Shown here: positions 44,346 through 48,851 of the stretch, in pieces
Numbering within the stretch: position 1 is the first letter of the stretch
Layout: each line of letters starts with the position of its first letter
From: a virus
Length of the DNA: 64,000 bases
Reading direction: 5' to 3' (one strand)
Virus record (IMG/VR): IMGVR_UViG_3300035698_006513
Made by a program: the position numbers and the translations under genes
The notes under the pieces: model-generated
The model's input: the letters and a program-made list of their open reading frames with translations, nothing else
Database searches by the model: none
What the model was told of the DNA's origin: nothing

Positions 44346-44387
44346 AATACAGTAAGAATACGATAACAATCAATGGAGGTAAAGGAT

Positions 44388-45173
44388 ATGTTGAGTATTG
44401 CCGCTGCGAGTCTCGTCACCGCAGTGGCGTTGCCACTGTATAGGTGGTGGCAGAGTGACAGGACCGAAACCAGCTCCCTGCTTCGTGCAGGTAGCGCTGT
44501 CGTCCCCGCTTTGGGCGTGGCGACAACCGTCGTGGGATATTATGAGCACATGGCTCAGATGGTTGAAGCATCTGAGCGGATGGAACTGAAGCTTCTTCGC
44601 CAGAAGGGTGAGGAAGTAGAAGTAGTACACACCATTATGGTGCCGCAAGGCATCGTGGACATGCTGGGGAGAGCTGTCATCCATACCGCGTTCGCAGGTA
44701 TGGATGAGGAGAGTGAGGAGCGAACTTTAGTTTGGGGGAGAAAGGGATGGGCACTGTCAGAGGAGGAAATAGAACTCCTCCTCGAATGGTTCCGAAGCAA
44801 CCTAATGCAAAGAAAAGACTTAGTCTTGCAGGCTACTATAGCCATCACAAGACTATTCTCTGCATTGGGTAAAAAAGCACTGAATCGTTCTATCGAAGTA
44901 ATGGTGCCCCATCTTCTGGATGCGTACGGAGTACCGGAAGCGGATGTACGTAGAGCAGTGGCATCAGGGCTGCTCGCCAATTCCAAGGATGGTCAGAAGG
45001 CCATCATAGAACACAGATCAGCTGCCATCGAAAACCTTGAGAACAAGGTTTTCGCTATGCAGGCAAACCTCTGTGGAGAAACTGTGGACGCAATGTCCGC
45101 AGCGAAGCGAAAGGTCGATAGTCTAGATATGTCTATGCTCGTATTGAGCATAGAAGATTCTAGACCGCAGTAA
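44388..45173 (+). CDS. Hypothetical protein with N-terminal hydrophobic segment
   Basis: GGAGG SD before ATG 44388; followed by terminator. Confidence 0.6.
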   Translation: MLSIAAASLVTAVALPLYRWWQSDRTETSSLLRAGSAVVPALGVATTVVGYYEHMAQMVEASERMELKLLRQKGEEVEVVHTIMVPQGIVDMLGRAVIHTAFAGMDEESEERTLVWGRKGWALSEEEIELLLEWFRSNLMQRKDLVLQATIAITRLFSALGKKALNRSIEVMVPHLLDAYGVPEADVRRAVASGLLANSKDGQKAIIEHRSAAIENLENKVFAMQANLCGETVDAMSAAKRKVDSLDMSMLVLSIEDSRPQ

Positions 45174-45210
45174 CGAAATCCATATCCTCCTCCTATGGAT
45201 TTCGTTTCTT
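45172..45210 (+). terminator. Intrinsic terminator-like hairpin
   Basis: AACGAAATCCATA/TATGGATTTCGTT 13-bp stem. Confidence 0.7.
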
Positions 45211-45271
45211 AGCATATTGACTTACCTAGGGTAACTGTACGAAAATATCCGACATTACTATGGAGGTGTAC

Positions 45272-45664
45272 ATGATACATTTTATGGCGGGTTTACAGAT
45301 CACTGATGTCACATCATATCTTATCGCTTCTGGGTCATTAGCGTTAGCCGTATTGTTTATACGTAAGTGGATAAACCGTATAGACAAGCGCGTAGACACA
45401 GCAGACGCGGCACTGAAGAGTGCTAAAGTTGCTACAGATGACCTACAGAGTGAAGTAGATGGGTTGAAAGCAGAGGTGGCTACACTAAGAGACGAGATTG
45501 TGCTTAAGGAGGCTACTGCGAAACTGGAAGGGAAAGTTGACGTTATTACGGGATTGGTATCGAATGCTACGAAAGTAAACCATGACCTGATGCGTGAGCA
45601 GATAGACAGTGTTCGCAGAGAGTTTCAGCGAAGTCTCGAAGAGGATAAAAATGCCAAATCTTGA
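45272..45664 (+). CDS. Single-TM coiled-coil membrane protein (holin-like or kinase partner)
   Basis: GGAGG SD; TM YLIASGSLALAVLFI followed by heptad coiled coil; overlaps kinase start. Confidence 0.65.
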   Translation: MIHFMAGLQITDVTSYLIASGSLALAVLFIRKWINRIDKRVDTADAALKSAKVATDDLQSEVDGLKAEVATLRDEIVLKEATAKLEGKVDVITGLVSNATKVNHDLMREQIDSVRREFQRSLEEDKNAKS

Positions 45665-46409
45665 TTCGTGCCCATCAAAAGATTTGATAATTACTGCGAG
45701 AACCCGGCCACTAAGTCCCGAAGAGAGAGACTGTGTAAACAGTTGTCAGTTTGGTGATATAGCAGAGCAATTTGTAAGTATCACACACGACCTAAAGTCG
45801 CCACTACGACACATATCATACTACTTGAATATGGCGATAGAGAGGGCTACAGAAGTAGAGCCAGATACGCAGTTACTAGATTATCTACTGAAGGGTGATG
45901 AGACTATCGACTCGGCATTACGACTCATCAGTAACTTGATGGAGTACTTCGACCCTAAAAGGGGTAAGGATACTTTTAGGATGAACTCGGTGCTAAGAGA
46001 GGCAATTACGTTACAAAACGGCAGCATGGATCGAACCGGAGCAAAAATAAGCATACCTGATGAAGATGTTTATGTGGAATTCAACAGAAAGCATTTGATA
46101 CGCATCTTGTCTAATCTGATTAACAACTCACTAAAGTATAAACATCCCGACCGCGAACCTCGTATAAACATATCTACGTCCAGCTGTGACGACAGGCTAA
46201 CTATCCGATACCAAGATAACGGTATCGGTATTAGCAAGGAACACTGGGAATGGGTATTTGAAATGTTCATGCGGGGTAATCACGATCAAGATGGTTCAGG
46301 GTTAGGTTTAGCACTATGTAAGAAGTTGCTAAAAAAAGAGGGCGGGGACATACGCATATCTGACTCAAGTGATGCAGGCACCACGTTCGAGTTCTTTATC
46401 CCAAAATAG
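45651..46409 (+). CDS. Soluble histidine kinase (HisKA + HATPase)
   Basis: H box THDLKSPL, N box LSNLINNSLKY, G1 DNGIGI, F box VFEMF, G2 GSGLGLALCKK; GAGG SD. Confidence 0.92.
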   Translation: MPNLDSCPSKDLIITARTRPLSPEERDCVNSCQFGDIAEQFVSITHDLKSPLRHISYYLNMAIERATEVEPDTQLLDYLLKGDETIDSALRLISNLMEYFDPKRGKDTFRMNSVLREAITLQNGSMDRTGAKISIPDEDVYVEFNRKHLIRILSNLINNSLKYKHPDREPRINISTSSCDDRLTIRYQDNGIGISKEHWEWVFEMFMRGNHDQDGSGLGLALCKKLLKKEGGDIRISDSSDAGTTFEFFIPK

Positions 46410-46419
46410 GAGATGGCCT

Positions 46420-46836
46420 GTGACTCGACCTATACTCAAGATACTTATAGTGGATGATAGTCCCGTGGATGCAGATATGGTATGCAAGGCGCTGGATGCT
46501 ATAGATGTTGCAATTAAAACGGTTGTACACAACAGCGGATTATCAGCAATAGAATATCTGAACACAACAGAGGAATTGCCTAATCTGGTGTTACTAGATT
46601 TGCACATGCCTCCGCCGAACGGTATGGAAGTGTTAAGACAAATACGGAAGGATACGAAACTGCAGTCTATACCTGTAATCATGCTCAGTGGAACACACAC
46701 TGACGATGTGATCCGAGATGCCTATGCGCTAAACATAAACGCGTACGTAGTGAAACCTGGTAGTTACCGCGCGTTTATGCGAGTCGTAAAGTGCATAGCT
46801 GACTTCTGGCTATGCACCGATATACGACTCCCTTAA
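46420..46836 (+). CDS. Single-domain response regulator (Rcp1/CheY-like receiver)
   Basis: ILIVDD, LVLLDLHMP, IPVIMLS, AYVVKP; AGGAG SD before GTG 46420. Confidence 0.92.
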   Translation: MTRPILKILIVDDSPVDADMVCKALDAIDVAIKTVVHNSGLSAIEYLNTTEELPNLVLLDLHMPPPNGMEVLRQIRKDTKLQSIPVIMLSGTHTDDVIRDAYALNINAYVVKPGSYRAFMRVVKCIADFWLCTDIRLP

Positions 46837-47369
46837 CTAGCTACTAATGTTACCTCCTCCTTCCGGTACATCCCTACTTTTTTAAGAGACACACCCGAAC
46901 TTATAATCTTGGATACAGTATTGAGGGCCTCCCCCCTAGTTCTTCTCCAAAGCATTCTATCTGTCCCCCCTTTAGGGTGTACGACAAGATAGCTCGCCAT
47001 CTCGGGTACGGAAATACCTTGTACTTCCGCCCTGCGTTTTCTTTCTTCAAACAGCTCATCAGTCAGTGCTGTGCGCACCACGAAATCACCTCCGTACCTG
47101 TCATCCTTTGTGATGATCAGGTGCGCACGCTTCTTCAGATTTGGATTTTCCAGCACTGCTCTATACAGATAGGGGTCATCTCCTAACAGAGGACAATCAT
47201 TTTTGCCCTCTTCCTTTGTAATTTCCGCCACGGATGCCTCCGCAGCCAGGTCTCTGATTTGTTGGTCGGTGATGTCAAACGCACCACATCTGTCTTCAGC
47301 CTTAAGCTGGGACAGTGCATGGGCAGTTACGCCTACAATCATACTAGTATATGCTTGTTCCTTGCACAT
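46833..47369 (-). CDS. Hypothetical protein, weak DUF4258/BECR RNase-like pattern
   Basis: VTAHALSQL..R..IT..I, Y.Y, LII, VVRT; TAGGAG SD. Confidence 0.5.
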   Translation of the reverse strand: MCKEQAYTSMIVGVTAHALSQLKAEDRCGAFDITDQQIRDLAAEASVAEITKEEGKNDCPLLGDDPYLYRAVLENPNLKKRAHLIITKDDRYGGDFVVRTALTDELFEERKRRAEVQGISVPEMASYLVVHPKGGTDRMLWRRTRGEALNTVSKIISSGVSLKKVGMYRKEEVTLVAS

Positions 47370-47491
47370 ATTACTCCTATACTTACCCGTCGGATTCTTA
47401 TACCTATAATTCGTCTATTTCTATTATAAGTGTAATTGTATATATTACACACACACTACGTTCCTATTATATAACATGAAGGAGACTCGAT

Positions 47492-48292
47492 ATGTACTTA
47501 ACCATCCCCAAGGGAATTGATTTTAACACCGAGCACGGCTTCTTGTCACTACTCCCATCCGAAGAAAAGTTGGACATGTGGCAGCTCGTTCAGCGAGAAA
47601 AGATGTTACGGCAGTACCGAAACAGAGAACCGTACGCATGGACAGGTGGACACGATGGCTGCACGGAAGACCATTACTATCGTGCGTACAATATACTCAA
47701 AGACCACGGAAGAGACGGTGTTTTCTGTTGTGGCCTGTCGCTAGAAAATCTGTTCATGTCACACAAAGAGTGGATGGGGCAGGACTTCGAGTCAGACATC
47801 GACCTAACCCTCAAACAGATGAAGGAGATCAAAGCGTATTTCTTTGTATATAGAGACGCGGCACGTACGTATGTAGAAGGTTCGGGTAGAGGTATCGAGT
47901 ATATGGGACGTATGCTAAAACGAAGATGGGATGAAGCCAAGCAAAAAAGTCCATCAGATTATGGCGAGAGTTTCGCTGAGGATGCTGGTCTTGATTTCAA
48001 ATATCACACTGACCCTTATAAGGCGAAGTTCGGAGCATACGTACAAATCCAGAATGAGCCAGATCTACTTAAAGACCCAATGGGGCACGCTGGAGTATTC
48101 GTGGGATTAGAGCAGCGCACCTCAAGTAGTGGGCAACAATACGATGCTATCCGGATATTCCAAGCTCGCGGACAAGCTGACTACGGAATGGAGTCAGGTG
48201 TAAATTTCGGATGGTTCAAGATAGGCAAGACGAGTAAGAACTCTAGATATACGCGTAAATTCCACTTTGGGGAAATTAGCGAAGGAGGATGA
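47492..48292 (+). CDS. Papain-like (NlpC/P60/CHAP-type) hydrolase, candidate endolysin
   Basis: PYAW..FCCGL (Cys), GHAGVF (His), IFQA; AAGGAG SD. Confidence 0.5.
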   Translation: MYLTIPKGIDFNTEHGFLSLLPSEEKLDMWQLVQREKMLRQYRNREPYAWTGGHDGCTEDHYYRAYNILKDHGRDGVFCCGLSLENLFMSHKEWMGQDFESDIDLTLKQMKEIKAYFFVYRDAARTYVEGSGRGIEYMGRMLKRRWDEAKQKSPSDYGESFAEDAGLDFKYHTDPYKAKFGAYVQIQNEPDLLKDPMGHAGVFVGLEQRTSSSGQQYDAIRIFQARGQADYGMESGVNFGWFKIGKTSKNSRYTRKFHFGEISEGG

Positions 48293-48293
48293 T

Positions 48294-48851
48294 ATGAGTA
48301 AGTTTTCTCTCGGAGGACTCATGAACGCTCTTATAGGAGAACCGAGGGACTCTACAGGTAGACATAATAATATGTTCTTCTTATTCGTGCTGGCGTTTCT
48401 TGTTATGATCGTCGCATTTATGGGAGCGATCTTTTATAGGACATCCATATATATCATAGACCTAAGATGTCCCGTAGCTTCCGCAACATCCACCACTACT
48501 ACAAGCAAAAAACCAACAAGATCGGAAAGAAGAAGAACGAGACTAGTAAATAAGGGGTCTAACGCTAGTACACGTAGGTACAAGGTGAGCTGCTCAGACA
48601 AGTCAATCTATATCAATGCTACGCTGCAGCCGCCACCTACGTTACCAGACGCCTTCTGGTATGTCATGCTAGCTGTGTTTATGTTCTTAGGTATCATATA
48701 CGCAGTAGTGAGACACCCCTCCACACAGAAATTTGGAGTCGATATGGTGTACGCGTATAAAGGTGTACCTAGATCTGGTGTAGAATCTGCAAAACAGACC
48801 TCCGGACTGCAACCTCCCCCCACAGAAATACCTCAATCAGATCAACACTAA
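48294..48851 (+). CDS. Two-TM membrane protein (holin/antiholin candidate)
   Basis: TM FFLFVLAFLVMIVAFMGAIF and FWYVMLAVFMFLGIIYAVV; GGAGG SD; coupled to hydrolase gene. Confidence 0.6.
   Translation: MSKFSLGGLMNALIGEPRDSTGRHNNMFFLFVLAFLVMIVAFMGAIFYRTSIYIIDLRCPVASATSTTTTSKKPTRSERRRTRLVNKGSNASTRRYKVSCSDKSIYINATLQPPPTLPDAFWYVMLAVFMFLGIIYAVVRHPSTQKFGVDMVYAYKGVPRSGVESAKQTSGLQPPPTEIPQSDQH

Follow-up and report, generated by a model that had tools for sequence, protein, structure and literature searches.

We analysed a 64,000-nucleotide stretch of DNA (IMG/VR record IMGVR_UViG_3300035698_006513), called the window below, which comes from a large, uncultured and very divergent tailed phage and carries a three-gene signalling cassette at 45272-46836 on the plus strand. 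Bacteria signal chiefly through two-component systems, and the cassette encodes a histidine kinase and a receiver of this kind together with a small membrane protein:

45272-45664, plus strand: gene 1, predicted membrane coiled-coil protein P0121, 130 amino acids; exact product on record
45651-46409, plus strand: gene 2, class I histidine kinase P0122 without a sensor, 252 amino acids, assigned from Pfam and PHROG matches and catalytic boxes
46420-46836, plus strand: gene 3, single-domain receiver P0124 of Rcp1 type, 138 amino acids, GTG start, assigned from its Response_reg match and active-site residues

The three genes are co-directional and tightly packed, with an overlap of 14 nucleotides between genes 1 and 2 and a spacer of 10 nucleotides between genes 2 and 3. 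Every start is preceded by a Shine-Dalgarno motif: GGAGG stands 4-5 nucleotides from the ATG of gene 1, the kinase ATG lies inside the last codons of gene 1 after GAGGA, and the GTG of the receiver gene is found 7 nucleotides downstream of GGAG. The exact products of all three genes are present in the public protein collection.

Products of the cassette genes and their phage context

The product of gene 2 matches HATPase_c with 86.7 bits and also several PHROG kinase families. Its H-box, THDLKSPL with H46, is invariant in an alignment with 15 cellular kinases, and the boxes of the catalytic and ATP-binding (CA) domain are conserved as well (N155/N159, D189-x-G191-x-G193, F203 and G215-x-G217-x-G219). 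Among solved structures the best matches are 8f71, WalK/VicK cores, HK853 (2c2a/3dge) and bacteriophytochrome kinase modules. Neither a membrane helix nor a PAS, GAF, HAMP or other input domain was found with Pfam, NCBIfam and hydrophobicity analysis, and 36 residues precede the DHp domain. By these features gene 2 is a class I (HisKA) histidine kinase of the HDLKxPL type that lacks a sensor. Its relatives are distant, cellular kinases being at most 34% identical. The short N-terminal part (residues 1-36, encoded at 45651-45760) is rich in cysteine, with three cysteines in the motifs SCP and C-V-N-S-C, and these could provide a minimal redox or metal input.

The receiver scores 66.3 bits against Response_reg (cut-off 30.2), and its active site is complete, with D12-D13, D60, S90 and K112, and with Y109 at the switch position. 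Rcp1, RcpA or bacteriophytochrome-associated regulators make up seven of its eight best solved matches (5ic5, 5brj, 1jlk, 1i3c, 1k68, 6xvu and 8avv, with E-values of 1e-20 to 1e-23), and its DFWL aligns with the C-terminal FW motif of phytochrome-associated regulators. Judged from its sequence, gene 3 is a CheY-like receiver of the Rcp1/phytochrome-associated subfamily without an output domain. Here too the relatives are distant: cellular receivers are at most 41% identical and are scattered across many phyla. Kinase and receiver form a real pair that, to judge from its intact residues, is apparently competent. There is no further kinase or receiver gene in the 64-kb window beyond the cassette.

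Gene 1 encodes a protein with one N-terminal membrane helix (approximately residues 13-30) and, behind it, a coiled coil of about 95 residues. It matches DUF948 (PF06103) over residues 19-85 with 27.5 bits, below the cut-off of 37.2, and PF06103 is also named for it in the collection's precomputed list; its other weak matches, all in coiled-coil regions, are to DUF7310 and SMC-like segments. The residues flanking the helix are acidic before it and basic after it (RKWINRIDKR), a charge pattern from which the positive-inside rule predicts a coiled coil on the cytoplasmic side of the membrane.

The original prediction for this locus had described just such a triad, namely a transmembrane coiled-coil protein, a kinase with all catalytic boxes and with neither sensor nor transmembrane domain, and a receiver with intact DD, D, S and K residues, and had likened it to HDLKxPL kinases with Rcp1-like receivers. 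Domain matches and residues bear out both descriptions, the latter through the THDLKSPL box and the prominence of Rcp1 and RcpA among the solved matches.

The window further encodes a primase, a family A polymerase, a UvsX-like recombinase, a Cas4-like nuclease, a baseplate wedge protein, a sigma-like protein and a class II ribonucleotide reductase; most of its remaining proteins have no family match, and no tRNA was found in it. The GC content, the GC content at third codon positions (GC3) and the codon usage of the three cassette genes fall within the spread of the 50 genes of the window. Records of the cassette proteins exist for 4-5 contigs from three sources (JGI/IMG, Logan and ENA), the longest of 124,666 nucleotides. 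We therefore regard a chimeric host fragment, which the original prediction had raised as a possible objection to itself, as unlikely, since the composition fits the phage, identities to cellular proteins are low and the proteins are recorded in several independent assemblies. The same applies to the more general idea that the cassette is a recently captured or decaying piece of host DNA, or an assembly artefact, with no role in infection. The cassette does appear to be lineage-specific, with none at the matching place in a few distant relatives, and it has a moron-like position between a terminator-like hairpin and a convergent gene (both described below). But its frames and catalytic residues are intact, and no cellular kinase exceeds the identity given above, so that we find this idea hardly credible.

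The cellular kinases and receivers that come nearest to those of the cassette are distributed among many phyla. Thirty-nine IMG/VR loci that share the ribonucleotide reductase (38-50% identity) lack all seven genes of the region. The top match of the kinase comes from a Bacteroidetes metagenome-assembled genome. At least five gene starts in 44360-47491 have strong Shine-Dalgarno motifs (GGAGG, GAGGA, GGAG, AGGAG and AAGGAG); such motifs at gene starts speak against a Bacteroidota host.

Analogous cassettes in other phages

Phage loci for comparison were collected by profile-derived pattern scans of IMG/VR for the kinase and the receiver and by tblastn searches of GenBank phages. Together these searches yielded 28 distinct phage loci that carry a HisKA kinase, an Rcp1-like receiver or both, a number that, for the pattern scans, represents a sample of the collections and not a census. 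In seven of them (L040, L043, L045, L061, L066, L069 and L080) an abutting, co-directional gene next to the receiver gene encodes a coiled-coil protein with a membrane helix. These proteins have 147-187 amino acids, consist of a long coiled coil with one terminal membrane helix and belong to four unrelated sequence families. The gene orders, including that of an eighth case (L074) which falls outside the counting rule, are as follows:

L043, L066 and L069: coiled-coil membrane protein, receiver, PAS kinase; membrane proteins homologous, contig GC content 0.37-0.61
L061 (Microcoleus phage My-WqHQDG, OR578706.1) and L080: kinase, receiver, second receiver, coiled-coil membrane protein; membrane proteins 47% identical
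L040: sensor-less kinase of 274 amino acids, receiver, receiver-X protein, coiled-coil membrane protein; frames supported by codon-position GC content
L045: receiver-X protein, coiled-coil membrane protein
L074: PAS kinase, receiver, receiver-PAS protein, protein with an N-terminal membrane helix and a coiled coil

The kinase of L040 is the closest phage kinase to that of the window (33% identity). At five junctions (in L040, L043, L045, L074 and L080) the stop codon shares bases with the following start codon, as TAATG or ATGA; in L061 the genes have 8 nucleotides in common. In most of these analogous cassettes the kinase has a PAS or membrane sensor of its own, and the coiled-coil gene is coupled to the receiver gene.

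Such a neighbour appears to be a property of phage loci. Among 80 cellular Rcp1-like loci, none had a co-directional gene for a coiled-coil membrane protein within about 2.5 kb of the receiver, and 2 of their 562 open reading frames meet the rule used for these proteins at all. The contrast between seven of 28 phage loci and none of 80 cellular loci, for which the phage count used all open reading frames and not a non-overlapping set, gives p = 4e-5 in a Fisher test; with each of the four families entered a single time, p becomes 0.003. A control at the level of open reading frames compared kinase/receiver loci (8 of 289) with 39 unrelated phage loci (3 of 426) and gave p = 0.03. The three-part design is therefore recurrent in phages and looks phage-specific. 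What phages have in common here is a likeness by analogy and not by homology: the search for the same triad in phage genomes, which had been suggested along with the original prediction, did turn up analogous cassettes in the seven loci, but none of their membrane proteins is detectably homologous to gene 1.

Several observations on these loci are worth recording in their own right. The kinase of L043 (2366-4648 in IMGVR_UViG_3300025121_000045) has an N-terminal membrane domain resembling that of ethylene receptors (ETR1_N, 36 bits) and several PAS domains, and the three genes of its cassette overlap as TAATG. The proteins encoded at 1513-1956 in L043, 3429-3980 in L069 and 3464-3991 in L066 form a tail-anchored coiled-coil family that was found only before receiver-kinase pairs; in a scan of 185,579 species genomes, constrained by the search pattern, no member of the L043/L069 family was detected. 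Finally, host contigs misfiled as phage seem to make up most of the GenBank 'phage' hits to the kinase or receiver, for example fragmentary Listeria, Enterococcus and Staphylococcus 'phage' records and Acinetobacter phage MD-2021a (with kdpD, envZ, rcsC, baeR and creB), and they would inflate counts of two-component genes in phages.

A putative minimal phosphorelay and its alternatives

With modest confidence we lean towards the view that the cassette is a self-contained minimal phosphorelay owned by the phage and made of three co-translated proteins, gene 1 providing the third part. The kinase, which has no input domain, would autophosphorylate on H46, and we infer that its phosphate would pass to D60 of the cognate Rcp1-type receiver. 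The receiver, lacking an output domain, must exert its effect through contact with another protein. A coiled coil at the cytoplasmic side of the inner membrane would come from gene 1, whose presumed contacts may be of two sorts. Gene 1 could recruit and gate the kinase, as an input or an anchor, or it could be the membrane-bound partner of the phosphorylated receiver, as an output or a scaffold; any target beyond these is likewise presumptive. The first option is attractive because the kinases of the window and of L040 lack an input. The second fits at least as well, because the kinases of most analogues have sensors and the coiled-coil gene is coupled to the receiver gene. The original prediction had seen in the membrane protein a detached sensor or anchor; its membership of the module gains support from the analogous cassettes, while the specific role suggested for it has a rival in the output or scaffold function.

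A wider claim would be that unrelated lineages of tailed phages have independently assembled a private device from a kinase, an Rcp1-type receiver and an obligatory membrane coiled-coil partner. We hold it tentatively, as possible but on balance doubtful. If it is true, the coiled-coil protein would be the input in sensor-less versions such as that of the window and the output elsewhere, and with this device the virus would be able to read, or to set, a state of the infected cell that is linked to the membrane.

A number of results weigh against the three-protein phosphorelay or against the strength of the comparison behind it. Gene 1 has no relative among 5.8 billion clustered proteins searched by word index or among 1.84 billion representatives searched exhaustively with HMMER; the searches returned solely the gene 1 protein itself and two weak coiled-coil matches. 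Profile and pairwise comparisons detected no homology between gene 1 and the membrane proteins of the analogous phage cassettes, so that their likeness is architectural only. The HisKA match of the kinase (23.6 bits, residues 43-99) lies just below the Pfam cut-off of 26.9. The rule by which coiled-coil membrane proteins were counted was drawn up after the first cases were known, and some of the IMG/VR contigs are possibly misclassified host DNA. No close relative of the phage was found among GenBank phages, in IMG/VR (queried with the kinase, a 1157-amino-acid neighbour, the polymerase and the peptidase alignment) or among JGI metagenome contigs (queried with the kinase).

The absence of homologues of gene 1 is also the starting point for a different explanation, in which only kinase and receiver form a unit and gene 1 is an unrelated small membrane protein carried on the same transcript, be it a lysis accessory of spanin type, a superinfection-exclusion protein or a stress protein similar to DUF948. 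Its look-alikes according to a language model are small phage membrane proteins, DUF2730 among them, and an N-terminal helix followed by a coiled coil is the design of an i-spanin, with a lysis-like gene pair situated 1.8 kb downstream. Against this, no frame for an o-spanin lipoprotein is embedded in or overlaps gene 1, its charges predict a cytoplasmic coiled coil, and analogous proteins recur beside kinase and receiver genes of phages but not beside those of cells. It should also be noted that the 14-nucleotide overlap with the kinase start implies a coupled translation of gene 1 and the kinase. We consider an unrelated gene 1 improbable. The i-spanin assignment in particular was tried and rejected: no lipobox frame of at least 20 amino acids exists in or beside the gene, and the predicted cytoplasmic coiled coil is opposed to spanin topology, this second part of the verdict being drawn from the charge bias in the gene 1 sequence.

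The surroundings of the cassette have to be considered at this point, as its proximity to lysis-like genes had led to the suggestion that it times lysis. The flanking features are:

45172-45206, plus strand: terminator-like hairpin with 13 perfect pairs and a 9-nucleotide loop (-15.9 kcal/mol, z -7.5), closing the upstream gene 44373-45173
45217-45246, plus strand: sigma-70-like box pair TTGACT-18-GAAAAT, with TTGACT at 45217-45222 and 9 of 12 consensus positions, overlapping the palindrome; candidate promoter
45222-45234: palindrome TTACCTAGGGTAA, exact (5+3+5) and unique in the window; candidate operator
46833-47369, minus strand: convergent gene for 178 amino acids, outside the module; open reading frame with AGGAG before its ATG, exact product on record
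47492-48292, plus strand: NlpC/P60-CHAP-like cysteine peptidase P0126, 266 amino acids, candidate endolysin on the basis of fold and homologues
48267-48851, plus strand: protein of 194 amino acids with two membrane helices, possible holin-like partner, overlapping the peptidase gene by 26 nucleotides

The peptidase P0126 has six homologues with 39-53% identity, and C79, C80, H172 and H199 are invariant in the alignment of the seven sequences. An AlphaFold2 model built with this alignment reached a predicted local distance difference test score (pLDDT) of 74.9 and a predicted template modelling score (pTM) of 0.81. Peptidoglycan hydrolases or peptidases of NlpC/P60 or CHAP type, including several phage endolysins, account for 21 of its 23 best fold matches (Z 8.3-6.4); the first are autolysin Acd24020 (7cfl, Z 8.3) and endolysin LysIME-EF1 (6ist, Z 8.1), values near 8 being borderline. 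The model has no significant Foldseek match in PDB, and neither the peptidase nor its neighbour with two hydrophobic helices has a Pfam, PHROG or NCBIfam match. Metagenome contig L064 (3347-5420) carries homologues of both (42% identity for the peptidase and 29% for the two-helix protein) with one extra gene between them, and we therefore take the two genes to be a conserved pair. The modelled fold thus supports a candidate endolysin of NlpC/P60-CHAP type at 47492-48292, and the pair is probably the lysis cassette of the phage, in agreement with the original prediction of an endolysin and a protein with two transmembrane helices within 2 kb of the signalling genes.

That the module senses the state of the membrane and controls this pair as a lysis-timing switch is suggested by the short distance to a peptidase supported by its fold and to its conserved partner, and by the membrane anchor of one cassette component. 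However, a convergent gene lies between the two units, distant relatives of the pair, including that of L064 with 3.3 kb available, have no kinase or receiver in the stretch of up to 3.3 kb upstream, and the analogous cassettes adjoin other genes, namely a tail-sheath-like gene, an HNH endonuclease gene or primase/helicase replication genes. For these reasons the nearness of the cassette to lysis genes looks incidental. The proposed timing of lysis finds no support in the comparison of loci, and we judge it very unlikely.

Upstream of the cassette, the hairpin follows the stop codon of the preceding gene (45171-45173), and none of 200 shuffles was equally stable; the U-tract after its stem is weak (UCUU). 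This terminator, the TTGACT box and the palindrome had all been pointed out before and are present where they were placed, but box and palindrome do not rise above chance. The region holds five sigma-70-like sites against 9.4 expected from shuffles, fewer than chance, so the box pair is not evidence of a promoter, and about 60 palindromes of the 5+3+5 type are expected by chance in 64 kb, which leaves this one without statistical weight. A comparison by eye of 24 upstream regions brought out no common motif. The preceding gene (44373-45173, 266 amino acids) encodes an N-terminal hydrophobic helix and has no family match; it is the GC-richest gene of the neighbourhood (GC 0.51 and GC3 0.54, the means for the window being 0.46 and 0.43), and its product from this start is absent from the public protein collection, so its true start may differ. 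At the other end the cassette has no terminator of its own. Its final four bases (46833-46836) are the 3' end of the convergent 178-amino-acid gene, which has no family match in profile searches, and since the two 3' ends overlap with no terminator between them, transcripts from either side would read antisense into the other gene.

The remaining alternative to a self-contained phosphorelay is interference with the host. The kinase, being constitutive and sensor-less, would phosphorylate or dephosphorylate host regulators, and/or the receiver would drain phosphate from host kinases and so silence, for example, an envelope-stress or a Detocs-like pathway, with gene 1 only bringing the pair to the membrane, the site of host kinases. 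An input-less kinase and an output-less receiver without an evident target of their own in the 64-kb window are in line with this, stand-alone receivers can be phosphate buffers, as has been proposed for DtcB in Detocs (10.1101/2023.01.24.525353), and the phage protein PIT4 is reported to affect several host two-component systems (PMC10714779). On the other hand, there is no specific similarity to Detocs or to defence systems, where PADLOC gives matches of generic domains only (PDC-M43B and PDC-M60B); the closest cellular receivers (at most 41% identity) belong to many phyla; and a decoy would need no kinase of its own. We rate interference with the host as rather unlikely; phosphate buffering may nevertheless be a mode of action of the receiver.

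Comparison with known systems

Two-component genes have been annotated in phages before. They figure among the auxiliary genes of Alteromonas phage V22 (PMC7289586) and, beside curli genes, of pelagiphages (PMC9599517), while the paper on Microcoleus phage My-WqHQDG makes no mention of its kinase/receiver cassette. In open-access papers and bioRxiv we came across no work on the function of a kinase-receiver pair encoded by a phage. Only in this sense does the original prediction of an undescribed system hold, and not as regards the mere presence of such genes in phages. An input-less and output-less pair with a membrane coiled-coil protein, in a form that occurs in several phage lineages, suggests that viruses run signalling of their own inside the host. 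Its three short proteins (130, 252 and 138 amino acids) also make a small and tractable set for biochemistry, which could reveal a new kinase input or a new receiver output.

Among known systems the pair resembles Cph1-Rcp1 and the bacteriophytochrome systems. The best matches of the window receiver are their regulators (Rcp1 1i3c/1jlk, RcpA 1k68, 5ic5, 5brj and 8avv), the window kinase has an H-box of the same HDLxxPL type, and in both an output-less receiver is encoded beside the kinase. Unlike Cph1-Rcp1, the window kinase has no PAS-GAF-PHY module or any other input, the pair is encoded by a phage and an extra gene for a membrane coiled-coil protein accompanies it. With HK853-RR468 of Thermotoga maritima (2c2a, 3dge) the cassette shares a class I HisKA core and a single-domain receiver, the kinase aligning over residues 41-252 (E-value 2e-12); however, identity is low, native HK853 has a membrane sensor region and its system does without a third membrane protein.

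For gene 1 the nearest concept is that of MzrA-EnvZ and of SafA and MgrB with PhoQ, in which a small single-pass membrane protein controls a histidine kinase that is not itself the sensor of the signal. But MzrA, SafA and MgrB act on membrane kinases, mostly by periplasmic or transmembrane contacts, whereas the window kinase is soluble and the coiled coil of gene 1 is predicted to be cytoplasmic.

Detocs is a two-component cassette at work in the conflict between phage and host (10.1101/2023.01.24.525353). It is composed of the kinase DtcA, the buffer receiver DtcB and the receiver-effector DtcC (with PNP or another effector), and so resembles the window cassette in being a three-gene two-component cassette with a stand-alone receiver. 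It differs in that Detocs is encoded by the host and the window cassette by a phage, and in that neither this cassette nor the rest of the window has an effector-bearing receiver.

With the other phage cassettes the window shares the whole combination of a HisKA kinase, an Rcp1-like receiver and an abutting membrane-anchored coiled coil; the kinase of L040 is sensor-less as well, and the anchor of L074 is likewise N-terminal. The differences lie in the gene order, in the C-terminal position of most of their anchors and in the second receiver protein that several of them carry. The window cassette, with its plausible third component anchored in the membrane, belongs together with them to a recurring, functionally uncharacterised class of phage cassettes.

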